Positions 24,129 through 44,113 of a stretch of 64,000 nt of DNA are shown here, piece by piece; the stretch's first letter is position 1, and every line of letters begins with the position of its first letter. Both the position numbers and the translations under genes were made by a program. Below the pieces are notes generated by a model that was given only the letters and a program-made list of their open reading frames with translations, had not been told where the DNA came from and did not search any database. The stretch is from Pseudogymnoascus verrucosus (taxonomy: Eukaryota). The stretch is from the NCBI GenBank assembly GCA_001662655.1, contig KV460236.1; one strand, 5' to 3'.

Positions 24129-25523
24129 CTACAACCTCCCCGGCCCCGGCGTCCCCTCCTCGCTCTCGGCGCTCCCCCCCCTCTCCTCATGCTCCACCGC
24201 CGCCGCCAGCGCATCAAGCCCCTGATTATCCGCCCTCTCCCCTCTCCCCTGCCACCTCCCAACCTCCTGCATCTGCCTCGCCTGCAAACGTACCATATCG
24301 CGACTCAACCCCCTCCCCTCCCTCCTCATCGCCACTGCCGCCGAGCTCGCGCCCTTGCGGAGTCCACGACGACCGCCTGGTCCGCCAGATGAAGAAGAAG
24401 AGGTAGATGGACGAGGACGGCGCGAGTCCTTGTAGTGCGTCTCGAGGTGCTGTTTCATGTTATCGGCGCGGGTGAACTTCTTAGGGCAGCCGGGGAAGGC
24501 GCACTGGATGCCCTTCTCGCAGGTGTGGATCTTGGAGTGGCGCGAGGCGTGGCCGGAGGTCGTGAATGTCTTTTCGCAGCCCACGGCGTCGGCGTAGCGG
24601 CAGTGATACCTCTTGGTTCCCGAGGCAGTCACCGTGGTTGCTGGAGGCGGCGCGAAGGCGGGGATCTGCGGGACCATGTGTCCCTGCGACGCGGCGTAGG
24701 CCGCCATGGCGGGGTCGTGGTAGTGCTGCTCGTGGTAGTGGTGAGAGTGCATTGGGACGCCGTGGGGGGCGGGGAGGGTGCCAGGGAAGCGCGGGAGAGG
24801 GACCTGGGACGGCTTGGCGTAGCCGTCGAAGTGGCGGGATCCGGGCTCGAATTGCGTGGGGTCGGGATACATTGATCCTGGGCCCATGGAGCTGAACGAT
24901 GCGTTGCGCGAGACTGGGTATCCGTACTCTGGGAGGGCGTCGCGCGGGGTGGAAGGCGAGACAGGGTCGACGGTAGCGATGCTATCTCTCGAGCCGCAGC
25001 GGAACAACTGCGGCGTAGGCGGGGAAGCCTGGCGCCCGTGCCTTGGTCTCACGCCATCATGGTAAGAATGTCTCCTATCCTCACCCATATGATGATAATA
25101 CTCCCTCGCCGACGCACTCATCGGGTTCGCCGACAGCGGCGCGCGCATCTCGGGCGCCGAGAACGGGTCCTGCGCGTGGTCGTCCTCGCGCGCGTTCGTG
25201 GCCAGGTCCCAGTAGGTTCTGCGGCGGCGTAGCTCGGGGATGGGAGGAGCGCGTTGGTCGGGGCCGAGGGGGGGGAGCTGGATGGGCGAGTGGTGGTGCG
25301 CGGGGGAGGCGTGGGGGGAGCGCTGGCGCAGGGGGAGGGAGAGGCTCAGGTCCTGCGGTTGCCAGGGCGGGAGGGGGGCGCCGACGCGGCGGCGCTCGGG
25401 GATGCTGATTGTGTGCGGGCTGGGGAGGGTGCGGGGGGAGACGGGCTCGGAGGAGGCGGCGTGGCAGAGGATGTCGATGTCACGGCCGGACTTGTTGCGT
25501 ATCCGCAAGGGGTTGGAAGCCAT
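24129..25523 (-). CDS. C2H2 zinc-finger transcriptional repressor, Nrg1/Neurospora CSP-1-like
   Basis: Two C2H2 fingers, CEKTFTTSGHASRHSKIH and CPKKFTRADNMKQHLETH, typical of Nrg1/CSP-1. Short repression-like motifs IDILCHAA (N-terminal) and LDALAAAV (C-terminal). Confidence 0.88.
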   Translation of the reverse strand: MASNPLRIRNKSGRDIDILCHAASSEPVSPRTLPSPHTISIPERRRVGAPLPPWQPQDLSLSLPLRQRSPHASPAHHHSPIQLPPLGPDQRAPPIPELRRRRTYWDLATNAREDDHAQDPFSAPEMRAPLSANPMSASAREYYHHMGEDRRHSYHDGVRPRHGRQASPPTPQLFRCGSRDSIATVDPVSPSTPRDALPEYGYPVSRNASFSSMGPGSMYPDPTQFEPGSRHFDGYAKPSQVPLPRFPGTLPAPHGVPMHSHHYHEQHYHDPAMAAYAASQGHMVPQIPAFAPPPATTVTASGTKRYHCRYADAVGCEKTFTTSGHASRHSKIHTCEKGIQCAFPGCPKKFTRADNMKQHLETHYKDSRRPRPSTSSSSSGGPGGRRGLRKGASSAAVAMRREGRGLSRDMVRLQARQMQEVGRWQGRGERADNQGLDALAAAVEHEERGGSAESEEGTPGPGRL

Positions 25524-28500
25524 GTTTGGCGTGTGTGTGTTGTGTGTTGTTTGTGTGTGATGCTTGTGAGAGTTGGAGATGTGATGTTGGGAGTGGGTGA
25601 GAGTTTGTGGAGAGTGGTGAGTGTGGTGATACGGTTGGTGGGTTTAAGCAGCGTCCTATGAGACCGGCTGACGGGGTGGCTGCGTTCTTATAGAATGTGA
25701 AGTTCGGCGGGAGAGGGTAGAGAGTGGGTGTCAGAGGTGAAGTGGGCAGATAGATAGTTAGCGGAGCGGACAGGGCTGGTGGGGAGGGGGAGGGAGGGAG
25801 TGAGGTAGAGTGGCAGTGGCAGTAGTGGTAGTGGCAGTGAGTAGTGGAGTTGGAAGGTAAAAGGCAAGTAAGTATAGTTTTAGTATAGTTTAGAGTAGTT
25901 TAGATACAGTTGGACTACATGACAAATACAAGTAGCAGGTACAAGACACTAGTTAAGGTGCAAAGCATAAAGCGTAATGTTAAGTGTATAGCATGGGTAG
26001 AGTGTGGGTCGAGCAGGGGTGGAATATGGGTAGATATGGGTAGAGTGTGGGTATTAGGTGGGTACTGTCTGGGTATACATAAAGTAGAACAAATGTATGG
26101 GACGATGTGCGATGAACGATTTCCGATGTGCAAGGGCGATTGGCGATGGGGATTTTTATGGGTATGGGGAGGGAGTTAGAAGAGGGGGGTGTGGGTTAGG
26201 AAGGAAAGAGAGAGGGGCTATTTTGATGTGGCGTGTGAGTTTTTAGTTAGTGTTGTTTGTGTCTGTCTTTTACGTTAGTAACTGATCTAGTAAAAGTGGT
26301 AAAGGTGATAAAGTGGTCTAGCTGGTGTGAGTGATGTGGTTAGAAGCAGCGAGATCGTTGGATAGCGACGTTGAATATTGGGTAGAGTAATGTACTATTT
26401 TTGAGGATCGTAGGATAGCAATTGCACGTACGATGTATGCAAAAGTTGGATCTGTGATTAGAGCAGCTAGCTGCAAAAAAATATTGAAGAATTTTCGTGT
26501 ATGCGTGCGAAGTTTACGTACGTGCAGTGGTGGTCGGTCGTGCCTGCCTGCCTCTCCTAACAGCAACACCTCACAAAACGGGGTTATTCTCATTACTACA
26601 ACCACCACATCCCCATCCATCCTCATCCTCGCTCACCCACTGCATCCCCCTCCCAAAACGGGGCTCTTCGGGGCCATCGCCCTCTCTGCAATACGCCCAC
26701 ATCCAACTATGCAGGCTATAATTGCCAATATCCGTTTCCTGTGCCACTACAGTCCCATCATAGGCCCCTTATAGAAGATTCCCTTTCTGCAGGACAGGAC
26801 CAGTGCCCACATGAGGAAGCAAAAAAGGGGGTTTTGAGAGGGGGTAAGTGATAGATGATAGATCATTACGGAGACCTAAACAGAACGGTGTCTGTCTGCA
26901 GCAGCAGCATGATGTTGTTGTCGTTGTCGACAGTGGCGCTGCTGTCTTCGGTGTATGACATGCTGCTGCAGATTATTATTGTAGTTAGTAGTAGGAGTAG
27001 TGTAGTAGTGTGCAGATTTCCCTCCCCCCTGGACACCGGTCCCTACCTGGGGTGTGTATGTGGGTGGATGTATTCGACAGTACAAATCCTGTACCTTTCT
27101 CATACGATTGGGGCGCCGGGGGGGGGGGAGCAGCAGCAAGGGACGAAAGGCGCAAACGTTAAAATGGGACTTGACACTTAACTCACAATAGATTGTCAGG
27201 CAGCCAGTCAGTCGGTCGGTCAGTCAGTCCGTCATCTGCAATGTCTGCTGCGAGCATAGGATCATCATCGTAAAGGAAGTGAGTGAATGGTACTTGCGGC
27301 CAGACTGCACTAGAGTACGTACAGCTGGTTGTTACTTGTTCTCTTCTCAACCAGAGTTGTGCGGCGGTATGGCATGGTATGGTATGGTACGGTATTCTAT
27401 GGTTATGGATGGTACCTAGAAATGGGTCTACGAAAAGGGCCCATCTCGACCCCCAAGCTGGTTGTGGTGGTGGCTATTTGTGTGTCGAATGTTAATTTGT
27501 GTGCATGTATGTGTGGTATAGCAACCGGGGGACCACACGCTCAGAGCTAACTCACCGAGAATAGCTTCAGCGCCAGCGCCAGCGTTACAGACAGCTGTCA
27601 AAGGTGTCAATATCGGTCGCTCATCGTCGCCGGCGAGCAGTCACTTACGCATGGATGTTGGTATACTATACGATACCATGGTTAGACTTCCTGTTGGGGA
27701 GGAGTAGAGTCAATATTGGGAAGAGAATGCAGAATGTCAGATCATGATGGACATGGATAGTGTACATTTCTGGGATCGGGGGCGTCGATGGATGCATGGA
27801 TGGATGGTCGTCGGCGTTGCGGGGGAGCGACGACGACAAGAGAGACAAGAGACACGAGAGACGATCAGTTGTCTTGTACGACGAGTCGTGGGCAGAGCGT
27901 CGATCGGCGATCATCATCATCGGCAGTGGTACTTCTGATGAGGTGCAGGAGTGTGCAGCGATGGAGGTGTTGGCAGGGGTTTGTTGTATGTGTGTGTGTG
28001 GATTCGTAGTGCATGTACCTGTCGATTTAACTGTTGTGGAGTTTCTTGCTGTCGCTGTCGATTCGCACACAATGTACCACCCCTGTAGATGGATGGAGCA
28101 CCTCCACCACACCCCTCCCCCGTCTCCCATGCAGAGCTGACCTGGGTCTTGGCGATTGGAGGTTGGTCTTGGCTCATGGTGATCTTGGTCTGATTTATTG
28201 GGGGAAGCGAGGGAGTTGCTTCGATAGAGCGTGATGGAGCGTGATGGAGCGTGATGTTTGAGTATAGTATGGTGCCACTTTTTTATGTTCTAATTTATGT
28301 ATTCACTAAAATGGGCAGACTTTGTGCAGTTAGATGAGAATAGTGGTGTGTGTATGTGTGTGTTATGTGTGTGTGTTGGCCGTGGTTTATTTATTGATTG
28401 TGGGTTTTACTTTGTGGTTGTATGGTGTGTGTGTATGCATAAGACAGTTCTGCTACAGGTCAACGGACGATGCCCCAAATGCAACTACGACAATAGAGAC

Positions 28501-31500
28501 AGATACACCCAAATACAGACACACACACAGGCCATGCCTACCATGCCTCCCAAGCCTACACACCTCATTCACACACACACATACACGCTCACACCTAATA
28601 CACTCCGAATGCGACGATACCTACATACACACACTCACCTACCTACTCACCTACTCACCTTCATCTCACTTCACTCTTCCTTCAATATGACTGAAATTTC
28701 TATCACAATCCTGTCAACTCCCATCAGGTCCCCTCCTACACTCCTTATTCCCCTGTTGCCACAACCCTGTGCCTGAGCTGCTCACAATGACACAATGACA
28801 CAAACGACTTAATGAGTAATCACCCACCCATCCCCCTCATCCCCCTCACCCTTCCCCCCTCGCACCATCCCTCGACATCACCCTCTCCCCCTCGCACCAT
28901 CCCTCACCCTTCTCCCTCTCTCCCATCTTAACGACACTGACGTCACCACCTTTCGTGCTCCCCGACACACCAGCACCAACACCATGCCATTCCCCTCTTC
29001 CCCATAGGCCACAACACCCACTCCAACACCCCAATCCCCATCAGACCACCCCTTAGTCAGCAACAGCAACTCTTCTCTACCGTACCTTACCACAGAACCA
29101 CAAATCCAGAGTTTAGTCAATCCCCATGGAGTGCCCGGCATCCCCAAAGCGTGCAAAATATCACCCCATCGAGAATAACCCTATGGAGCCGCCCCGTCCG
29201 TCGCCCATCTCCCTCCATAGCTCCCCCTGCCCAGTCGAGAACACACACACTGAGAGGAGGCAACCTAGCAACCTAGAGGGAATAGTACGGTCGCCTCCCC
29301 ACCCGTTACCGCGTCTCCCTCCTCCACCCCCCATCCAATCCCCATCCCCCGATTTATCTTCACCGGCCCACTTCCCACTCTCCACGGCACTCTCCAGTGG
29401 TAAACTCCCCGCCATCCAACACCATCCAACCCAACCACATCCCTCTAACCAATCACCAGCTCCATGCCTCCAATTCTCCAACAAGTTAGTCTGGACGTCT
29501 GGCAGCACTGTGGTGCAAGGCCAGGCCTGTGCCCTGCTAGCGAGGACCCTACAACCCGCACCACCCGTCCCAGCGCCAAGAGTACTCTAACTAGGGAACG
29601 AGTTGGGTGGCGACAGGCCCAGGGCGGGAGAGGAGAGCTTCCTGTACGGAACGGAGGGGTGAGGTCCATGGGAAGGGAGGGGGATACCACGACAATTCAC
29701 AACACTTCAATTCATCCCCTCTTGCAAAAGCCGCAACGGTTCTTCCATACCACCACCACCACCACCTTCTCCCAGACACACAAAGGCACACGGACATAAC
29801 AATCAAGACAAACACCTGCACCTGCATCAGGAGCCATCTCCGGGGTCTCACTCAAATCTCCGCCCCCCTCCGTTCCTTCCAAATCAAAAAAATTCCCCAT
29901 CCCCTCTCCCATCCCATTTCCCCATCCCCTCCTCTCCATTTCCCATCTCCCCGCCGTCCTCTGTGCGTACCGTGCGTGCGCTGCTCGGGGGGTCCGTTGG
30001 GCTGTGTGTACCCGTACCCACCAGCGCGACGATCGGGGGTGGGTAGTGCATTGGTAAACTCTGGTACGGGGATGGTACACCGCAGTACAGAAAGTCCTCT
30101 ATCGTACATGGGGCGATAGAGCTGGGGATTGGGTAGCGACACACACCTGTAACTAACTCCCTGCCTGCACAGTTCGCAATGGAGAAGGATGCGATGCGAT
30201 GCGGATGCGAGATGCCCTGTATGGATGGCCTGCTTACAAGATGAACAGGGATGCTGGGGCAAGAAAGATACGTACTGCACTGTACTGCACACCAGAAAAC
30301 CCACCAACCCACACGCCGGCGCAAGTCTAGATCCGGCCATCGCTGCATGATGCGACTAGCACGGATGGGGGTTGGGGGGAGGTGGGAGAGACCCTGCTTG
30401 ACGTCACGGTTGGGAGGTTGTGCCTGACAGGAGAGTGGTGGTGGTGGGCTTGGGGAGGAGGAGGCTGAGTGTGTGTGTATAGGTGGTGATTTGTGTGGTT
30501 TGTGTGTGTGGTGTGGTGACTGTTGGAGAGGGGTTGCACGTGTTCCCACTGAGAGGAATGGAGCTGGAGGGTGAGGTTTGGGGATTTTGGGCGTGTGGTT
30601 GCAGCACAGACACAGTTACAGTGTAAGCATGGCTTGCTTTTGGAGATACATCATCATCGCTGTCGCTGCTGCTGACGACGATGACCACGACGACGATACG
30701 ACAATACGACAATACCACGACATCACCCTGGATAAATCCAATAGGTAATGCACGCCATACATAACCCCCTCCCTGTCATAATCCCTCATCACCACCAGTC
30801 ACCACTCACTCACAACCACTCACTCACAATACCCCCCCCCGTCAACCCCGTCAACCCAGTTACCCAACACCCATAATCCAGGAAGACGGGAATCCCCAAA
30901 TACGAGCCCAGAAAAATCAATAATAAAACGCCACCAAAACCCTCATTTCTGTCGGTAGCTGGGCTGGGCTGGGCCTGTGTTGGGGTATTTACCCCATACC
31001 GATCACAAAAAACTGTGTCGTCACTTTCACCGGTACTCGGGTACGATGGAGTAACCCTTACCCCCTTCGTTCCTTCCGTCCCTCGCTCCCTCTCCCTCGC
31101 TCTTTCCCTCCCGGCCGCTTCTATTGCCGATTTGCCGTCCGTCGCGGAGTTGGTCTCATTCATTACTTACGTTATGCCTCTATCCTCTATCGTCCCTTCC
31201 TTCATTGAGCTTACCGGTTACTCGCGCTTTCCTCCCGTCGTTAACTCCGTCCTAACCCCCCTCGATCGCACCTTCCCTCCTTCCTTCCGCTCCTTACCTA
31301 ACTTAACCTCGCTCCATCACACACTCCCTACCTCGGGTCTCACTTCCCCACACTCCACTACACTACTCGCACGCTTTCCTCTCAAGACCATCGACGCCAC
31401 AACGACTTGGAGCGCCCCAGCCCCCTTGCCGGAGCTGAGACAGGCACAAGAGTACTTTGTTGGCCCCTGAGACATGGCCGAGATCACCATAACGATCTGG

Positions 31501-33394
31501 TGCCCCCCTGCAGACACTCTCGCGATGCGCCGGTGGAAAGAGGTATTGTGATCATGGAGATGCTATTGAGAGGGCTACTGAGGGGCCTACTGAGAGGTCT
31601 CCTGTCGTGACCCCCCTGGTGAGGAAGTTGCACGGGGCTCTGGCGGTGCCCTATCTCCCTTTCCCGTTTTCTCTACAGTACTACAGACACACAGACAGAA
31701 GACAGAGTTACTTACACTCACCAGACAAACATCTCTGAGACACAAAGCGGCCCCACACCCCACAACGGCGCCCTCTTGCATCGCCGATGGAGATCTCGAG
31801 CCCTCTCGCCCTGCCCTGCCCTGCTGCCACCTTCTCACCCTGCCCTGTCCATCAATCAATCCACTCTCACCAACCCCTGTCCTGCTGTCCTCCTGCCCTA
31901 CCTCTACCGCTCCACCGAAAAGCAGGGCAAGCAACGACTCTCATCTCTCTCACCAGGCATCTTCGACGAGCGGGTACCACCACACCCCCGGCACAACTCT
32001 ACTCACCACCCCAGCCACCCCCGGGAAGGGAGGAGTCTGAGCACGGCCTCGGCGATCAAGGCGGCCGGCGAGTGGGGAGCGGAGCGGGAGGGGGGGTCGC
32101 CGGATTGGGGTCGCCTTGCGAGATAGGGTGAGAGGGTGAGAGTGAGAAGTGATGCCCGGATCGAGCGGGTGCCGGTGGGGAGGGGGGAAGAGCGGCTGGG
32201 GCGGCATTGGGTGGGGTGGTGCCCGGCGAGTTGTGCCTCTCCTTGAGCTGTGCCCTCCCCCCCCCCCTTTGAGCTATGGGGATTTGGGGTGTTCTGCCGT
32301 TGGGTTCGGTCGTGGCATCGACCGTTTGGGGGGGTGGTTGAGGGTGTTGAGGGTAGTAGAGGGTGGTAGAGGGGCTGAGAGGGCTGAGGAGGGTGTTAGG
32401 GAGGGTGGTCTACCATTTAGTTCGCCGTTTGGGGGAATGGTAGGCCGTTTGGGGGGGTGGTTGAGGGTGCTATCGGGGCTGAGTAGGGTGATAGAGGGTG
32501 CTAGGAGGGTGTTGGGAAGCTAAAACGACGCTGCTGCAGCTGGTCACGGCGATGAGGGGGGTGATGGGGGTGCTGGGGGTGGTCATGGGGGGGGGGTTAG
32601 TTTGCGGGAGTTAGGGAGTTAGGGAGTTAGGGGGTGAGGGATGGGGGGATAGGGAGGGGATTGGGGATGGATTGGGGATTAGTGAGAGGGACTACACTAC
32701 ACTACACTACACCATCAACCTTCTACAGCCCTACAATCCCTCACCAGCACCAGCTGACCAGGTATGCCCCCTCCCTCCCCTTCCCTCTACTCATCTCACC
32801 ACAACACCACAACACCAAGCTCCCAAGCTCCCAAGCACATCCATCGCGTCATCGGACATACCTCCACCCCAGCTCAGCTCGACAAGCTCCCCCCTGCCGT
32901 CCATCCCGTTCCCCGCACCGCACGCACGCACGTCCGGTATGGAGGAGACTAGACCGATCGATCGGCCGGGCGGCCGGGTGGGGTTGCGTGCACGGCGATG
33001 GGCTGGGGGGGTGGTGTGCCAAGGACGGCGGAGGACGGGTAGGCGATGTGGTGGATCGGGGGAGTGGGAGGTTGAGTAAGGTTGGGTAATGGCATTGTCA
33101 GCAGGGCAAAGCAGTGGAGTCGAGAGGGATGGAGGGCAGGGGAAGTGAGATAGAGGGCAGGTCAGGGGAGAGAAGGGGAAGGTCGTGCCGGTAGGGTTGG
33201 TGGTGGTAGGGTTGGTAATGTTACTAATGGTAGTGGTGTTGCCGGTAGTGCCGCCGGTAGTGCTGCCGGTAGCGTTAGAAGTGGTACCAGTAGTCGCTGA
33301 TCCGATTGCGAGCGTTAGGGATCAAGGTATACGGATTGTTGGACGGGCATCAGATTTGTCAACGGTGGTTGGTGCTTTGGAGGGGATGACGGAT

Positions 33395-35030
33395 GCCGGA
33401 TTGGGCGGTGTTTGGTTTGAGATACTGGATACTTGGGGTGTACGAGAGGTCTACTCGGAGTCTACTTACTACTACTCTAGCTGTATATTGAATGATTTAC
33501 TTACTTATCTCCAAGTAAATGATTCAATAGATGTGCGATTTCTCACTGCTAGTTGGAGGCATAAGATATTGGCGGCGGAGTAATGGCGAGGTTGATCGCC
33601 GGATGGGGATGGGTGAAGTTTGTTTGATTGAGATATTTCGATATAGTAAAGCCGTTTGATTTACTTTTGCAAAAGGCGTTTCTCATCAGAGTTTAATTTA
33701 ATGTTAAAGCAAGCAAGCAAGCCAAAAAAAAACGCCGGATTAGGCCATGTGAAGCCGTTGATTGAGATCCCGTTATAGTTCACGCCCGTTTTGATTTACA
33801 TTTTTTTAGATGCAATGTTGCTCTCCCATCAAACATAACGGCAGGTTTGACGCCGGATTTGGTCATGTGAAATCCCCCAGCCGTTGAGTGAGTGAGATTT
33901 TCGATAACTTCCATGTATCCAGGGCCCCTTTTTTTATCCTCTACATTGTTCGAGAGCGAAGGGGGTTCACGTACAGGCGTTATCAAGCAGGGAATGCCGG
34001 ATTAGGCCATGTGAAATCCCGTTTTGATTTACAGTTGCTCCCCTTCTATTGAAGTATTGAAGATTGTAGGGGGACGATTTTCAGGTACAGACTCGAGATT
34101 ATTGGGTGAGAGAGGCGCCGGATGGGGATGGGTGAGGTGCGTTGATTTACCCCTTCTATAACGTTAGAGGGGACTTTCAGGTACGGAACGCCGGATTAAG
34201 ATGGGTGAGGTGCTTTGATTTACCCCTTCGAGGGGACTTCAGGTACAGAACCTATGATAAACACCGGATTAGGAGACGTGAAGCCGTTTGACTTACCCTT
34301 CGATGTTAATTTCGAGGTCTGATTTACGTACCCCTTCCATGGCCGTTGAAAGGGGACTGCAGGTACGGGCTTTGGATTATGGAGAGAGAAAGAACGGCGC
34401 CGGATGGAGAAGGGTGAGTGAGGTGCTCTGATTTACCCCCCTTCCATAGCGTTATCGAGGGAACTGCAGGTACGTGGTTCATATTATTGGGTGAGAAAAG
34501 CCACCGGATTTGGGAGGGTGAGTGAGGTGCTCTGATTAACCCTTCAATCTAGTCTTCCACGGCGGTGGTTTGGAGAGAGGGGACTTTCAGGTACGAGGAC
34601 CACCTTAATGGCTGGAAAGGCGCCGGATGGGTACAGGTGAGGTGGCTTGATTTACCCCTTCTATGGCGTTTCTGGGGACTGCAAGGTGTGGAATGGCCGG
34701 ATTAGGCCATGCGAGGACCGTTGGTTGAGACCCCGGTTCCATATCACTAAGTGAGTTCTTCCCTATCTGCAACTGTCTTCGAAGGGGGTTCACTGGGGGG
34801 TTCACTGATACTCGTTTATTGAAATGGCCAGGGAAATTTCGCCGGATTGGGGGCCGTTTGATTAAGATTCATTTACTGTGGTCTAACTAATGCATTTACT
34901 TAGTCCTTGCATTTCCATGACTCTCGTCCAAGGCTGTTAGCTGCACTTGGTACCCTTAGATGGGGGTGTTAAGATGGGATGTTTAGATTAATAGCAAGCA
35001 GGACGCCGGATTGGGATGGGTGATTGGGGG
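33395..35030. repeat. Array of 14 degenerate modular repeats; consensus RCCGGAT-N7-12-GTGAGGTGC-YTGATTTACCCCTT-[variable]-AGGGGACTKCAGGTAC
   Basis: RCCGGAT at 33395, 33598, 33734, 33852, 33996, 34117, 34190, 34263, 34399, 34503, 34622, 34696, 34841 and 35005; spacing 73-203 nt. The central units carry all modules. Confidence 0.9.
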
Positions 35031-37990
35031 GGTTTTCAATATCGTTCATGCATGATTTACATCCAGGGTTTATAGCTCTTACTCTACTTAGGCAGGGGGG
35101 ACATGACGCCACGCCCGTACCACGCCCGTACCTTAAATGACAATCTCACGACCAAATCAGGCTGTCTGATTAACATCTTTCTATAATGCATGCACAAACC
35201 CAATTCCCCCGCCGGTCCTCACACTTCCTCTCCTAATACTCACCGGGAATAAAAAATTATGCAGGCTTCGACCCACCATACATTTCATTAACAGCCCGGA
35301 TCTAGCGGTTTGAGTAAGAAATACAACTTAGCACCATTATGCATGATTTACATCCAAGCTTGCCTGCCCTCCCCTGCTCCCCCTCCCCCCGATCAGCATC
35401 AGCGGCGGTACTAGGCAAGTTAAGTTAACTTAACCTAGCCCCGGCACTCAACGTACCCGCACCCACCCCGGACGCCCGTGCGTCCCGCCGCGCTGATCCC
35501 CGCGCCTTGGCCTGTAGGTCTTGGCGCTCTAGCGATTTCTGAGACAGCACCCACCACCATCATTACTAAACACTACTAAACATTACTAACACTACTAAGT
35601 TAATCTCCCACACTTTGTCTCTACCCAGAACTGGAAGAAATAAGACGCATCCGGCCAAGCGCGTGTCTCGAAGATCTCAAATACACCCCAGCACAGCTAC
35701 GTGCGCGACGACCCCGCTCGTTCGCCGCCCTGGTGGTGGTGTGGTAGTCTTGCCCTGGTCGCCGCTGAGAAGGCCACCACGCAAGGGTAGGGGGGAGGGA
35801 GGGGGGCGGACGGGGATACCCCAGCTTGACCACGGGAGTGCGATGCCCCGGGTGGTAGCTTGGTTGCTGAGCCTCAGCTATAGATACTAGCTAGACGGGG
35901 TAACCTAGCTGGGTGGGTGATTACTCACGACCACCTTCGCCGCGCCGGCGAGCTCGCCGATCCGGATGGCCCCGCCCCCCCTGTGCTGGGTTGCTGTGGT
36001 TGATGAGTGATCAGTGTTGTGGTTGATCCGAGCGCGTTGCCCGGTGATGGGCCGCTGACAGTGCGTGATGGCGGGCTTTGAAGGCGGGCTGGGTGTGGGG
36101 AAGGGACGTCATGGCTTTTGGGAGGTGGTGGATCGCTGGACCGAGGTCGGCGCAGGGGGAGATGGGGAAGAAGCAGCAGCAGCAGGAGTAGGGAGGGCAT
36201 GAGGGCGCTGCACACTGGCGGTTCACTGGCGGAGCCACGGCGGTGCCACGGCGGCATTGGATGCAGCGCGGCGGTGCGGCGGCGGCACTTTGCTGGGCAA
36301 CGGCGCCATCACGGTGCTTTGCAAGTCACGCCGGAGGAAGGGGTGGAGATTCGAAGGGGAGTGTGGTGGAGAACACATCGCACACCAGAAGCAGGACGGA
36401 CACAGAATGGTACGATAATGATGATTCCTGCGTCCCGGCGTCTGCTTCAACGGCCTCTGTACCTGCTTTGAACGAGACAAGGCTGTCTAGCTATGTCTAC
36501 ATGGTAGGCTATTACTACTGTTATCAACGAACAGGTGTGAGGTTCGAGACAGCGGTCTTGGGAAGGGAGGTACAAGACAAGATACATAGTGCGAGAGCTG
36601 CGAGACCGTTAGTGGCAAATGTATGTAGGGGGGGGGAGTGTCACGCACCACCCTGCTTGTTTCTGCGGCAGGTGATGCATCGCATCGCCGCGCATCGAAC
36701 TCAAGCAGGGCCGCACCTGCCTGCCTACCTACCTGCCCTGCTGTTTTTGCTCTCCTCTGCAGCGGCACAACGGCGATGCGCACAGTAAAGGGTTCGCTCG
36801 CGCGGTGCAACGGTGGCTGATCGCAGTGGTGGTGCCGTCGATGCTACCCTATCGACGATGGTGGCGCGCCGATGCGATCTGGTTCATGGGAAGGGGGGTG
36901 TCGTATCGTAGGGTGCCATTCCCATTTCCACGAGGCTGGATCGGGGGAGACGATTATTCTTAGTGGGCGGTGGTGGTGCCTCTCTCCCGTTGCGTTTGTT
37001 TACACCTCATCCCCGCCCTCTTCCCGCTCACTTAACCTCCTCTTCCCTGTCCATCCTCCCGTTCCCCCTCCGTTAGCTTCCTTGTCTACCTCTCCCGTCC
37101 CCCTTCCCTGTCCAGCTGCTGCGACTGCCGGCGTCCTAAACACCCATTCCCCATAACGGTAACATCCCCGCCCTCGACGCGGGCCGGTGTGCTAGGAGGG
37201 CACGGCCTGGACGGCTGGGCGATGTTACATCGATGCGGGAGGAAGGGGGGTTACGTTTCCCTGGCGGAGGGTTACATCACGATGCATCTTCGATGGATCG
37301 AGAGTTGGGGCGTTTCCGCGGTGATGGTGGTGGTGGTGGTGGTGGTGGTGGTAACTGGGGGTTTCGATCGGGGGGAGGGGCGCGTGGTGGGTGGGCGTGG
37401 CATGATGTGGTGCGACGCGGGCACGAGGGGCAGGTGGGTTTGCGGTGCGTGTGATGCTGTGGTTTGGTGGGGATGGGGTGGATTGGGGGTGAGAAGGGGA
37501 GAAGGGGTGCTGTGTGTGATTTGTTTTGGGGGGGTTTGGGGCGTTTTTTTCTGGGGCGTGAGGAGGGCTGTAGGGGGCTGGTGGAGGGGGTGATAGGTTG
37601 GTGGCGTTTTTGTGTGGTGGATTGGGGATTGGGGGATGTGGTAAGTGGTAAGTGGTAAGTGTTCTTTTGTGATAGATGTGATAGATGTGGTTATTGGAAG
37701 GAGAGGAAGAGGTGAGTTGGAGTTGAAGTTATAGTTTACTGGTATATGATAGTAGTATAATGTAAATATATAAGTTGAATTGGTTACAGGAGAGTATAGG
37801 GAATAGATCTATAATTATATCTGTCAACTTTTATTCATACTATTTTTTCTTGAGTGAGAAATAAAAATAAAAATAAAATATTGAATTGAAAGGCCAAAAG
37901 TCACCAAAAATTACAATTTACACACTGAAAACATCAAGCCATTTCGACAAAGCATCACAACCTAATGTACGAAGGCTTCCCATTGATCAT

Positions 37991-40432
37991 CAGTGTTGCC
38001 CGAGTACTACTCTGAATACTCGAGTACTGCCAAGCCCTTGGCAAAGAGGGGTAATATAGATTGTAGAATAGATAATTGAAGCTTCTACTTGAGCGTTCTG
38101 TATTACTTCCTGTAATGAGTGACTCTTCGCTGTCGCCGGTGCCGGCTGAGTATCAGTCTGATGCTTTAGAGCTGCCGCCCCTTATTCCAATGCCCCTTAT
38201 TTCGATGCTGCATATGCCTCTAAGAGTTCAATTACCTGATTCTACATCAATACTCTTTTCCAAAAGACTATTCTACCGTACTTTATTAGATATAGTACCT
38301 GCTAGAATCTAATACCAATGCCTTCAAACCAATTGTGGATATACGCTGAGCTAGCCCCTAAAGAACCCAACGACGAGCAATCTATAGAAGCATCTTTAGA
38401 AGCAGCACCCATCGGTGCATGCAGACAATATCTTCAATTCGAAGCTCATCAACACCCTCTACTTCTGCTTCTGCTTTCTTCTAGCCCCGCTAAGCACCTA
38501 GTAATGCACTAAGTTCGTCGAAATATAGAGAGCTTGTTCTCTCTTTTATAGTATCAAATAACCTACCATTACGCCTTATTGAAAGCTAATCCTTCTAGCA
38601 ATTAGTTCACCATCTAAATCCTATAGTCTTAACAGTTAGTAGAACTACAATTAGACGAGATCTATATCGACTATTCTGCTATTATAAAGCACGGCTTCAA
38701 GTAGAATTACAACAGCATATTACAAGCGGTAGATAACTGGCAATAACGACAGATACTTAGTCTGCTCAGAACTATTCTAAATATGCAGCAGTTACAGTAC
38801 ACTAGATTAATGATAATTAGCAAATGAGAAATACCATACTCGACGTTATACACCTACAAGAGCCAATCTACTCTAGTGAATACCTTGCTAAACAGTTAAT
38901 AAATGTGACGGACGATTACAGTATTACGCCTACAATCTTTACTATTACAAGAGATAACGCCTCTACGAATACAACTATGCTATTAGAATATGAGAAGCTA
39001 GCTTCAGTACAACCTGTTACTCTAAAACAACCATGGGCTTTTATAGCAAAAGTAGGAGACGTACGCTGTATTAGGCATATTATCAATATTGCTGTTCAAG
39101 CTGCTTTAGCCTCTTTAAAAGCAACACTAGATGAAGGCCTAGAGGCATATCGGCTTGAGATTAGGGTAGCACAAATACCACTTACTTCTGAAAATGATAT
39201 CGTCACTGTTCTTGCTAAGCTCTAGCGTTATATATATGTGTTTTAGAACTGCCGTAGATAGAAAGACGCCTTGAAGAATCAGTGTAAAGCTGCGAGTATT
39301 AAAGTCCGTCAGTTAACTCTTGATATGCTAGTCTGATAGAGCTCAACTTATCATATAATTGATACAGCTTTAAAGCTTTAGGTTCCAATTATAGCTTTAT
39401 GTGCATTATAGCAACTTGATATTAGTATAAGAGATATTGCTTTAACAACAGTAGACTAGGCTACGCTACATGACTTATTAAAGCTATTCTATATCTTCGT
39501 CCGCCTAACTAAGAAGTTACAGGGCTCTTCTTATCTATCTCTTAACTACGCTGTTCCGTAGTATATGAGGATGATCAAGAAGCTTAAAGATATGAGAAGT
39601 AAGCTACTAGAACGAAGCCTAATTGCTACTGCTACGTCAATTGCGTTAAAGAAGCTTAATGATTACTATACTCTAGCTACAAATTAGCAACAGAGCCACT
39701 CTACAATTGCTACGATCTGTGATCCTCGGTATAACTTTAACGTCTTTAATATTATATGGAAAGATAGCACGCACTTAACTAGGAAGAATAGGGCAAAAGC
39801 ACAGTGGCAGGACTGCTTCTATCAATATTTAGGCCGCGAGTCTGATATTCGAGCAGCAGACGTTATGAATAGTATTGAAGCTAAGGATCTAGATATAGAG
39901 CAAGCTATAAATATCGATATCGACTCAGAAGATGAGCTATACGTATCACAAAGCCGCCACAATATTGAGCCAGAATAGAAGCAATGGATAAAGGAGCTGA
40001 CAGTTGGTAGGGATACGGATATTCTTAAGTATTAGCAGAGTAAGCAATACTAATATCCATTAATTGCTTCTATTGCAAGGGATTACCTAGCTATTCCAGC
40101 TACCTCAGCAGACTCAGAACGAGTATTTAGTGTCGGTGGTGATATTATCACAAAGAAACGGAACCGATTATCGCCTTCTACACTTAGATATCTACTTTGC
40201 TTACGGAATTGGGGTGTTTTATCACAAGGCGACGACGAAGACAGCGGCGACGATGCAGATAATGAGAGTTAGAATAGTAATATACAGTTTTATATCAATA
40301 TCTATTTTAAGCTCGAGTACTACTCGAGGTATTCGAGTACCGGTACTCGAATACCGGTACTCGAGCTTCAATTTTCAGTACTCTACTCGAGGATGCTCGA
40401 GTAGTACTCGGAGCGGTATTCGGGCAACACTG
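37991..40432 (+). mobile_element. hAT-superfamily DNA transposon, 2442 bp, RIP-inactivated
   Basis: TIRs CAGTGTTGCCCGA(G/A)TAC at both ends; perfect 8-bp TSD TTGATCAT (37983-37990 and 40433-40440); subterminal TACTCG/CGAGTA repeats; remnants of a hAT transposase. Confidence 0.96.
38740..40272 (+). pseudogene. hAT transposase pseudogene
   Basis: Translated through stops: TTDT*S..., VTVH*I, ITRDNASTN, VRCIRHIINIAVQ, LDMLV**SSTY and the dimerisation domain LKY*QSKQY*YPLIASIARDYLAIPATSADSERVFS.GG.IITKKRNRL. Confidence 0.92.
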
Positions 40433-40746
40433 TTGATCATTACATAGTCAATGAACAGCGGACAGCAGATAGGAGCGTCATATTCTAGCAGATAAGGCTT
40501 CATTGATTCTCGTCATATAAACTTTGCATATCACATAGATTGTCAAAAGGCAGCATAAACTCTATCGGACAAGCCTTCTTATTGATTCCCACCCGTTCTA
40601 TGAGATTTGACCATCAAATAGTAAATATACAGAAAACTCCTCCACTTTCCCCCCTTTACAACTGCGTCTTGCCAGACCTGGCTGGGAGAAGAAGTGGAAA
40701 GCATCGTTCTTAAATCTACCCCCTATCCTACCAGCAAATCGATAAC

Positions 40747-43700
40747 CTACTTCCCAACACCCCAAATGTCTCCGTTCCATCCCCCCTCTCTCGCCCGTCT
40801 CCCGCCACGCATCCGACTCTTATCCGGGCCGGTGCTAAACAACAACGCCACTGCGTCGCCGGCAACACCTTGTACCAGATCCGCCATCGCGTTGCGGCCG
40901 AGTCCTTCTTTTTCTTCTTCTGTGCCCGCTCCTCCTTTTGATGTGGGAGCGTCGGGGCCGAGAAAGATGTTGGTGAGTTCGGTGTTAGTGGCGATGACGC
41001 TAGCGAGCTCCATGCTCTCGAGGAAGTGGTCGCGCGAGATATAGAGGCCGGCATTGTTGAGGAGGGCGGCGTATGCGAGGAGGGTAGGCGGGAGGTAAGT
41101 TGCGTGGAGTGGGATGAGGGCGGGGTTTGCTTTGGTGCTATCAGCATGGTGCGTGGGTGCAAACAGGAGTTAGTAAGAGTGAGAACATACCTTCCCGACT
41201 CTTCACAAGCCAATTATCCAGCAACGGCGCGACGCTGTGCCGAATATTGGCAAAATTCGTATGAAACTCGAGACGAAGCTTCTTGCTCAACCGCTCATCT
41301 TGTTTACTACGCTGTGTCAGGAGGTGGAGGTCATAAGGGGGATTCTGGCTCTGCGGGTTCTGCTCCTCCAGCTGCTGCCGCAACTGCTGGCGCTGCTCTG
41401 GGGTCTGGATCTTCGCCTTGGTGCGGCGGCGGGGGAAGTGGGGGAAAGAAAGTGGGGTGGAGACATACACCTGCGACAACTGCAGTGAGTCGATGATACC
41501 CGCGACGCCTTCGATGAAGTCGAGCGCATTAACCAAGCCCTCGAGCTCGACGTACGCGCGCGCCTCGTCAGCCATGTGTTTGCGGAGGAGGCTCTCGAGG
41601 TCCGTACTATCGCCGCCGTCGCTGAGCTGGGACAGCTCGAGCGATTCGCCGAGGAGGACGGGGGTTTTCGCCGCGGCAATGTCGCGAGAGGGCATGCACC
41701 CCGCCAGCTCGCGCGCGGCGGCGATGTGGCCGTGTTTGAAGAAGCGGACGAAGAGCGCGGTGCCAGTGCGGAAGGTTTCGCTCCACATCCCATCGACGAG
41801 GAGGTGCCATTCGAAGGCGCGGATGAGGAGGGCTTCAGGGCGCGCGACGGCGTTGCCGATGAAGTTGGGGCGCAGCTTTTGGCTGAGGCCTTGGTTGGAG
41901 TGTTGGCCTGGGACGAGGATGGAGAATGTGCGCGCGGCGGGGTAGCCGGGGGTGGTGTCGGGGTAGTCGACGAGGAGGAAGGCGGTTTGGAGGCGTACGA
42001 AGCGCTGGACGTCGAGGCCGAGTTCTTTCATTAGCTTGATTTGGGTGATGCGCTGGTCGGGGTCGGTGACATCGAGGAGTTCGCGGGAGAGGGTCGAGTA
42101 GGTCCTGGCGTCGGAGAGCTGGGCGGCGTAGAGGGGGATGAGCTCTTCTTTGCCGGCGAGGCGGAGGAAGGAGATGTAGGCTACGACTACGCTTTCGATG
42201 GCGTAGGTATCCTTCTCGTTGACGAAGGTCATGCCCAGGCTCTTGAAGGCAAGGACCATGTGCGCCAAGACTCGGAGACTGTCAAAATCTTCCGTCTTGA
42301 TATACACAACCCTGTCCTCATTCTTAGGATCGGTCTGGAGATCGTCGATCAATTTCGAGGTATCCTGGGCATTTGCGGCTTTGGAGATGGCAATTCCCTG
42401 TTCGCGTATGAAATCGCGGAATGTATTCGCGATAAGAACCCCCTGGAGCATCTTCAGGGGCTGCTGTGCCTCCTTTATGAGTCCAGGCTTTGCATTCAAC
42501 AAATCCACAGTTCTCCGCCCCACGGTGGCTGGGTCGCCGTGAAAGCTGATCGCATCAAAAGCCTCAATTGATTGGACCTGGTCTTGGGGCGCACGGCTCG
42601 GGAATTTCTTCAAAACGAACGCCTCGTACTGGCTTCGGATCAGCGAGTTGTAGTGGACGAACATCTCGTCGTCCCAGGATTTGCAGACTGGCGCAACACT
42701 CCAGAAGTCGCCGGCGAGAATACCGTACACGGCAGTCTCATAAATATCGGAGCCTCCCCGCTTGGCCAAGGCATGGCACATGCGGCGCCACAGCGCCCTC
42801 GAGCCATGGTCTGCGGTATCGTTTTGCGAGTCGTCATCTGGGAAACCGCCCATGCTCACAGCGCGCCAGATTTCCTGACGGTCTTGACACCATTCTCTGA
42901 TATCCTCGCCGCTCTTTCCACGGCGGAGGAGCTCGTAACAGCCGCGCCAGATGGCCCTTTCAAAGTATTGATCTGGCGCTTCTAGGTTAAGGTTCTGGCG
43001 TATTGGCGCATCGGGATCCAGTTGCGTGACGAGAGCCTCTGTCTTGGACGCATTGCGGAGGGCGCGGCTGACGTCTGGGTTGGTAGGATCAAGGATGTAT
43101 TGCCACGCGTGGAGTCGCTTCTGATTTTTGATTGCGGATTTCGTGTGCAGCCATCCATGTGCGGTGATATCGCCTCTCTCAGCATTCTGCTGAAGTTCCT
43201 GGACCAACACATCGATATCCTCGCCAGACTCATCAGCAGTGTTCTTGAGCCACTCCAGCACGGTGTGTCGCTCCAACCCAAGCGTATCATTCTGTAAAAA
43301 TGAAGTCCAGATTTGACGCTCGGAAGAGTAGCGGTGGATTGGAGGCGCGTCTTGAGTTTGCGGCGGGCCATATTGCAATGTGGTCATTCGGCGTAACAGG
43401 TCCCACGTACGGGCCTCCTGCTCCCACCGCTTGAGGTCTTCAGGTGTAGTCATCGGGTTCGATTCGATAATTTCCTGGTCATCGGATCCATCTTCATCCA
43501 TCGCATCATCATCGTGGTCTGCCGTGAACCCCAGTATATTTTTCCTCCCTGTGTGGCCTGTTTGTCGGCGGTTGTGCTGCGCACGGAGTCTCTTCACAGC
43601 CTCAATCGCAATATCATGGTATGAATCGATGAGATCAAACGTCATATCCTTCCTGTCGGCATCGTCGACAGCCTTCAGGGGGTTGTAGCCATCCAGGACC

Positions 43701-44113
43701 TCCGCGAATTTCTCGACCTCTCGGCCAACCCTGTTTGCGGCTTCGCGCAGAGGGTGCAGGATATCTTCATGGCTATCTCCACTGTCGAAGTCCCGTGTCG
43801 GCTGGTATTCTAAAGAGAACATCTATTAGTTGAAGCTCGTTGGCCGCAGGAGGGTCTCGCGGCTTACTTATAGCATCGTATTCAAACTCGCCGTCGTAGT
43901 CCTGGAAGGAGCCAGAAGGGTTTTCAGAGAGCTCTCTTTCCGACCGGGAATCATCCTGTGCAATGTCAGCACGGGGCACAACATAGTAAATCTTAACCTG
44001 CTTACCCCTTCAAGCTGCCAGCTCTCTTCGCGGCTGACATGCGGCACGATGGCTTGAGGGTTCAAGAACTCATTGGGAGCTGTCTGGCGTCCCCGTCTGG
44101 TCATTGGCGCCAT
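40747..44113 (-). CDS. NUP84: Nuclear pore Y-complex nucleoporin Nup84/Nup107
   Basis: HPLREAANRVGREVEKFAEVLD, WE.EARTWDLL, GWLHTK..IK, LVTQLDPDAP.RQ, WC....EIWRA, YETAVYGILAGD. Predicted introns 44005-43956, ~43867-43823, ~41190-41130 and possibly 41470-41405. Last exon ends ...WNGDIWGVGK*. Confidence 0.92.

Follow-up and report, generated by a model that had tools for sequence, protein, structure and literature searches.

A gene-poor stretch of Pseudogymnoascus verrucosus holds a tandem array of long, diverged units, probably an old complex minisatellite

The stretch of Pseudogymnoascus verrucosus DNA considered here, 64 kb of contig KV460236.1 and hereafter called the window, holds a tandem array of 14 units of 73–203 nucleotides (nt), each headed by the motif RCCGGAT, at 33395..35110 (array positions are given in window coordinates, on the + strand). 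The reading we prefer, with a probability of about 0.55, is that of a complex minisatellite with long units, a tandem repeat that is old, non-coding and specific to this locus. Its copies stand head to tail on one strand, the unit content varies between relatives and the sequence is non-coding, features by which a minisatellite is recognised. This reading is carried by the tandem anatomy, by the age of the duplications relative to the species split, by unit numbers that differ between relatives and by the absence of a coding, Rfam or covariation signal.

Judging from the anatomy, an ancestral unit of roughly 75–145 nt would have been duplicated head to tail. Unequal exchange between units, or slippage during replication, would later have changed the series, and small insertions and deletions would have altered the units themselves. 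The 'minimal' units of 73 nt seem to have arisen by deletion from a longer ancestor, because GTTTGATT-type sub-boxes are doubled in several of the long units, and decay appears to have been strongest at the edges of the array. The inverted repeat CCC(C)TTC...GA(G)GGG would be a passenger of the unit, and the variable interior of the hairpin that it can form would reflect insertions and deletions in a palindromic stretch rather than selection on an RNA stem. Most likely the array as a whole is neutral or nearly so, and the part kept by selection, if any, would be the two short DNA boxes CGCCGGAT(T) and TGATTTAC.

Anatomy of the array

A motif search of the window placed the 14 RCCGGAT anchors between 33395 and 35011, on the + strand only, with starts at 33395, 33598, 33734, 33852, 33996, 34117, 34190, 34263, 34399, 34503, 34622, 34696, 34841 and 35005. 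The distances from anchor to anchor are 203, 136, 118, 144, 121, 73, 73, 136, 104, 119, 74, 145 and 164 nt, which bears out the count of 14 units spaced 73–203 nt apart given in an earlier note on this DNA. Over the whole window RCCGGAT is in mild excess (24 matches against 17.4 ± 4.3 expected). At the rate found outside the array, 0.13 matches would be expected on one strand of 1617 nt; since 14 are present there (Poisson P(≥14) ~4e-24), the array is real and far above chance.

The seven central units (33996..34695; 121, 73, 73, 136, 104, 119 and 74 nt) carry all five of the boxes that run from the RCCGGAT anchor to CAGGTAC. Sequence comparison finds the units homologous over their length, and the central ones are 61–85% identical in pairs, with a mean of 68.5%. 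On the left lie four decayed units (33395..33995; 203, 136, 118 and 144 nt), of which nothing is left but the CGCCGGAT(T) head and, mostly, TGATTTAC; on the right lie three more (34696..35110; 145, 164 and about 105 nt), recognised from their anchors, from a profile of the central units and from a k-mer count. The conserved five-box order described in the earlier note therefore stands for the central block, but the seven outer units keep only two of the boxes. The two head sub-types that it described as interleaved both exist, but a reading of the unit strings finds them mixed rather than strictly interleaved.

Searched against the 64-kb window, the central-unit profile matched the seven central units at E values of 1.5e-22 to 8.6e-15. 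It recognised all but one of the seven outer units as well, but these six matches were weak (E 0.005 to 6), and five of them were limited to the first 19–37 profile positions. Among the left-hand units three of four were matched, at model positions 1–25 to 1–33 only, and the unit at 33395 was missed, so that 13 of the 14 units were recovered, in order. Outside the array the profile found nothing in the window, and a single reverse-strand match (E 5.9) lay inside the array; likewise, blastn with the array as query gave nothing below E 0.16 elsewhere in the window. Tandem Repeats Finder reports only 1.8 copies with a period of 104 nt because the array is too diverged for that program.

Minisatellites and other complex tandem repeats with variant units have examples in fungal promoters and introns. 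The array resembles them in being head to tail, on one strand and non-coding, in having variant units whose number varies between close relatives, and in its more decayed edges. It differs in that its units are long (73–203 nt), 61–85% identical and unhomogenised, and in that two boxes outlive the rest. The minimal units of 73–74 nt and the others, most of them of 104–203 nt, lie at or above the usual minisatellite range of about 10–100 bp.

Relatives and the age of the duplications

Contigs of four relatives, here X2, X3, X5 and X6, were aligned to 32500–36000; for X2 all substitutions were seen, and box and spacer conservation between species was judged from X2 only. X2 is the closest relative, and a single contig of it spans the stretch, with 36 substitutions in 3501 nt (~1%) and 34 gap letters. 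Seven of the substitutions lie in 32500–33394, seven in the array and 22 in 35111–36000. The seven in the array all fall within 33706–34185 and none falls in a box, a distribution that is not significant. Because the central units are only 61–85% alike whereas the window and X2 differ by ~1%, the duplications are much older than the species split, and the copies are not being homogenised.

The number of units has changed among close relatives. X3, X5 and X6, each in one contig, show the joints 34213>34142 (back 72), 34175>34607 and 34640>34214, which X2 does not. Together these joints make one extra mosaic unit relative to the window and X2, and unit content therefore differs among the sibling species. 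In X5 the hairpin interior at 34166 differs too. The contigs of X3, X5 and X6 end or overlap at about 34040–34150, inside the repeats.

Three further observations were made in these alignments. Just past the array, 35254–35326 carries 12 X2-only substitutions in 73 nt where the divergence around it is ~1%, so that the patch may have a mosaic ancestry or may be a small tract that was replaced. A second X6 contig, of 5165 nt, matches 34108–34160 (53 nt, six differences), and its joints point to more short pieces that keep this order; the contig may come from a second locus, or the run may include another strain with a diverged copy of this one. At the right-hand edge, 35109–35132 consists of 2.2 copies of the 11-nt unit CCACGCCCGTA, and one copy (11 nt) is missing from the contigs of all four relatives.

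Two surviving boxes and a possible cluster of binding sites

The boxes of the unit do not share one fate. An alignment-free k-mer count across the 14 units, in which the seven central units were compared with the seven outer ones, found CCCCTTC, CAGGTAC and GGTGAG each in six of the seven central units and GGGTGAG and GGGGACT each in five; CCCCTTC, CAGGTAC, GGGTGAG and GGGGACT were each found in none of the seven outer units. The boxes are also concentrated at this place. TGATTTAC has 11 + strand matches in the window, ten of them in the array and the eleventh at 35344, and none on the − strand; six of the eight window matches of CAGGTAC, and all three of GGTGAGGTG, lie within the array. With at most one mismatch, the box at the head of the unit (box A, CGCCGGATT) has 15 copies between 32098 and 35012, all on the + strand, and eight scattered elsewhere in the window, while the second box (box B, TTGATTTAC) has 13 copies between 33492 and 35351, again on the + strand only. 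The distance from box A to box B is variable, at 26–98 nt.

Several of the observations weigh against a wholly neutral repeat. The k-mer count finds CGCCGGAT in five, GCCGGATT in six and TGATTTAC in four of the seven outer units, and no other 7- or 8-mer common to at least five of the 14 units persists there. Uniform neutral decay does not predict such survival; the units were delimited by box A, however, so that its retention is partly circular and only the second box is a fair test. In the central units 29 of 84 columns (those present in at least five of the seven units) are invariant, and they are clustered, with one in 10,000 permutations giving as few runs; the longest run, of six columns, is unexceptional (P 0.07), and aligners tend to pile identities into blocks. 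Box copies also stand alone beyond the array: an exact box A (CGCCGGATT, then GGGG) at 32098..32106, 1.3 kb upstream, and a box B (ATGATTTAC) at 35343..35351, 230 nt past the last unit, both on the + strand. X2 has no substitution in the 993 nt of 34186–35178, although the remainder of the stretch predicts about 10–14 there; this tract could reflect mosaic ancestry rather than constraint, and we give it little weight because the divergence between the window and X2 is patchy. Lastly, the array is at the same place in all four relatives, which at 1–3% divergence says little. Selection acting on short DNA motifs would leave just such a combination of clustered columns and of boxes that survive in the outer units. 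The contention that spacers are less well kept than boxes is upheld to that extent, but is weakened by the role of box A in delimiting the units and by the habits of aligners.

Two repeats that surround copies of box B may be noted beside these. ATGCATGATTTACATCC occurs twice, at 35048–35066 and 35338–35356, 291 nt apart, and the lone box B at 35343 repeats the surroundings of the copy at 35052; the repeat-bearing domain therefore reaches ~250 nt beyond the last RCCGGAT anchor. In the first decayed unit an inverted repeat at 33486–33529, with arms of 17 nt that are 94% complementary and 10 nt apart, surrounds a box B and its complement.

A possible, though doubtful, alternative is that the array is a homotypic cluster of putative protein-binding sites, born by tandem duplication and kept for CGCCGGAT(T) and TGATTTAC. 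The putative boxes would recruit sequence-specific factors within a gene-poor stretch of ~15.5 kb upstream of an NRG1/CSP-1-like C2H2 zinc-finger gene, and the inverted CCCT/AGGG pair of the hairpin arms could add candidate sites for the NRG1/CSP-1 class of repressor. This would account for the 15 and 13 copies of boxes A and B around the array, all on the + strand, for the persistence of both boxes in units that have otherwise decayed and for the clustering of invariant columns, and a variable distance between boxes is tolerable in site clusters. The uniform orientation of the copies, however, is also the outcome expected from duplication alone, and the retention of box A carries the circularity already mentioned.

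Position can be read both ways. The array starts 7.75 kb upstream of the NRG1-like C2H2 open reading frame (ORF), with no coding signal between the two, but even this nearest ORF start is far from the array. That ORF (24129–25643, − strand) has its best matches among Pseudogymnoascus proteins, at 84–99% identity, and homologues at a greater distance bear the names NRG1, transcriptional repressor or C2H2 master regulator. The label 'CSP-1-like' given to it earlier is reasonable.

The sequences of the putative sites give leads of unequal value. A passage of PMC4726075 gives CCCT as the core motif common to Nrg1p and CSP-1; the passages of PMC9848017 that were searched held none on a CSP-1 motif. 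The central units have CCCT and AGGG on opposite arms of the hairpin, next to an NRG1/CSP-1-like gene, but a 4-mer is poorly informative, and the array, with 15.2 CCCT per kb, is no richer in it than the flanks, which have 18.4 and 15.2 per kb. The same was found for NRE-like, BrlA-like and CreA-like motifs, none of which is denser in the array than in the flanks. CGG/CCG triplets, as half-sites of zinc-cluster factors, are a further lead only.

For box B, a passage of PMC4705621 places TGATTTAC among the 8-mers preferred by the Exd–Hox homeodomain pairs of animals. Box B is exactly TGATTTAC, and the variant TGATTAAC, which also fits the Exd/Pbx–Hox form TGATNNAY given in that passage, is present too, whereas the array variants TGATTGAG and TGATTAAG do not fit; the system is an animal one, and the resemblance is an analogy and a lead only. 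A literature search with the box sequences returned only Exd–Hox papers for TGATTTAC and, at title level, nothing relevant for the CCGGAT forms. We know of no fungal TALE-homeodomain pair that uses a site of this type.

As a class, homotypic clusters of transcription-factor sites that arise by tandem duplication are like the array in their many same-strand motif copies, their variable spacing and their place in an extended regulatory gap that precedes a regulator gene. The array differs in lying 7.75 kb from the nearest ORF start and in having boxes with no known factor. Tandem repeats in yeast promoters are said, in work attributed to Vinces et al. in 2009, to tune expression.

RNA, mobile elements and genomic surroundings

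Each central unit has a hairpin-capable segment on the + strand. These segments lie at 34040..34073 in unit 33996 (outer stem of 8 bp, five of them Watson–Crick, interior 16 nt), 34150..34172 in unit 34117 (8 bp, interior 6 nt), 34223..34235 in unit 34190 (5 bp, interior 3 nt), 34331..34355 in unit 34263 (6 bp, interior 13 nt), 34436..34461 in unit 34399 (only 3 contiguous bp, interior 20 nt), 34540..34582 in unit 34503 (6 bp, interior 31 nt with an inner CCAC/GTGG stem) and 34655..34677 in unit 34622 (4 bp, interior 15 nt). The interior is thus as variable as the earlier note had it, from 3 nt in unit 34190 to 31 nt in unit 34503. Its fixed stem ends are found on one side only: the 5′ arm CCC(C)TTC is constant, but the 3′ arm varies (GAGGGG, AAAGGGG, CGAGGG, CTGGGG, TAGGGGG). 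These 3′-arm changes are uncompensated, contiguous stems span 3–8 bp and units 34399 and 34622 are largely without a stem. Nor do the interiors behave as free spacers, since four of them (units 34117, 34263, 34399 and 34622) share a YCATRGCGTT-like core when the strings are read side by side; they are better regarded as homologous sequence with insertions and deletions.

Direct searches for RNA gave nothing. Rfam at permissive thresholds returned only noise of E>3 for 30000–38000 and 33300–35400, and ARAGORN found no transfer RNA (tRNA); a cluster of small nucleolar RNAs, microRNAs or tRNAs is ruled out by these scans. The RNAalifold consensus of the seven central units has a free energy of −1.87 kcal/mol, and none of its 13 pairs is compensated, so that the covariation check proposed for the units speaks against a structured non-coding RNA. 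The alternative helix suggested between GGGTGAG and TTTACCC fares no better. It pairs in 83.7% of cells, against 81.2 ± 2.1% when the 3′ letters are shuffled (n=500, 131 shuffles doing as well), with one double change; since it does not exceed shuffles, its pairing follows from sequence conservation alone. Single-unit fold z-scores for six units are −0.84, −2.21, −0.56, −2.10, +0.20 and −0.82 on the + strand (mean about −1) and lie between −0.68 and +0.52 on the − strand; a G-rich strand would be expected to show such a weak bias. A conserved RNA fold is unsupported by any test run, and so is the earlier proposal of a structured non-coding RNA unit.

Transcription of the array from the + strand, to act as a string of small structured RNAs or of intron-like modules, is very improbable. 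Filamentous fungi have a splice-signal consensus and recursive splice sites exist, and it is on these that the intron-like form is based: GTGAG(G/T) would be a 5′ splice-site-like element, TGATTTAC a yUnAy branch-like element, the hairpin would shorten the distance from branch to acceptor, and CAG joined to GTAC would rebuild a donor at the acceptor. The best-kept central boxes do follow the order donor-like, branch-like and acceptor-plus-donor-like, with GGTGAG and CAGGTAC each in six of seven central units, and the + strand, unlike the − strand, has a slight folding advantage over shuffles. All seven outer units, however, lack the donor-like, acceptor-like and hairpin boxes, the 3′-arm changes break the stems of units 34399 and 34622, and there is no + strand gene downstream of the array before the transposon remnant described below.

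The array may also be compared with fungal introner-like elements and with the recursive splice sites of long animal introns. It shares with them short units, donor-, branch- and acceptor-like boxes, a small stem and CAG followed by GTAC; it differs in that its copies are tandem at one intergenic place rather than dispersed within genes, and in that the boxes are missing from the outer units. Introners are near-identical copies that serve as introns of unrelated genes, and the unit profile matches no gene in the window. It is extremely improbable that the central units are intron-like modules of a non-coding + strand transcript, a long RNA removed stepwise by recursive splicing; to our knowledge, recursive splicing has not been described in fungi.

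A coding origin finds no footing. There is no ORF of at least 90 amino acids inside the array and no stop-free stretch of more than 87 in 33584–35569, and between 25.6 and 40.7 kb no segment has gene-like codon usage, in agreement with the earlier statement that the array has no ORF (the longest stop-free stretch is 87 amino acids). The unit lengths are not multiples of three; with the frames closed as well, a KEX2-type repeat peptide was rejected.

It is highly improbable that the array is a mobile-element remnant, whether the subterminal repeats of a DNA transposon such as the nearby hAT or a tandemly amplified miniature inverted-repeat transposable element or short interspersed element. The suggestion draws on a hAT dimerisation domain at 40054–40272 (E 1e-15), part of a degenerate + strand remnant at about 38.8–40.3 kb whose upstream frames are broken, in an AT-rich stretch (37700–40500, G+C 38%) that begins near 37.7 kb, and on the match of the second X6 contig to 34108–34160, from which a unit-like piece may exist elsewhere. 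The array, however, has no similarity to the hAT stretch or to other window sequence, and the 64-kb window holds no dispersed copies of the unit. As the earlier note held, it has no terminal inverted repeat: distant arms are only 71–84% complementary over 14–25 nt. All of its box copies have one orientation, with no mirrored array. Nor, again as held earlier, does it bear a signature of repeat-induced point mutation (RIP), with indices of 0.82 and 1.12, and its composition is unlike that of the AT-rich hAT-bearing stretch, which is mildly RIP-like (1.24 for TpA/ApT and 0.98). Since all four relatives carry the array, no insertion boundary is visible.

The array sits in ~15.5 kb (25644–41140) without convincing coding signal except for a last-exon region near 40.8 kb, bordered on one side by the C2H2 ORF and on the other by a Nup84/107 gene (41141–43822, − strand); a gene-poor gap of this length is unusual for this window. 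Just upstream of the array, G-rich short-period repeats occupy 32606–32641 and, more generally, 32125–32680. They include 4.5 copies of (GGGAGTTA), an 8-mer made of the telomere-like TTAGGG plus AG, and repeats of GGGTGGTAGA, TGATGGGGG and GGATTGGGGAT.

Beyond this locus, the array sequence GTGAGGTGNNNTGATTWACCC, used as a probe of metagenomes, gave 11 single matches and no array, and the unit profile scored the matched stretch only; we take these matches to be chance, and the best of them seems by eye to lie in coding sequence. A title-level literature search on Pseudogymnoascus repeats and on minisatellites of filamentous fungi returned nothing on the array.

If the array is the complex minisatellite that we favour, its significance is minor: it would be an old repeat in a regulatory desert, and the differences in unit content among sibling species would at best make it a marker for strains. 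Should proteins turn out to bind the two boxes, the locus would offer a clear example of how tandem duplication can assemble a cluster of regulatory sites upstream of a developmental repressor of the NRG1/CSP-1 type, and would supply two candidate motifs in a genus that includes the pathogen of white-nose disease in bats.

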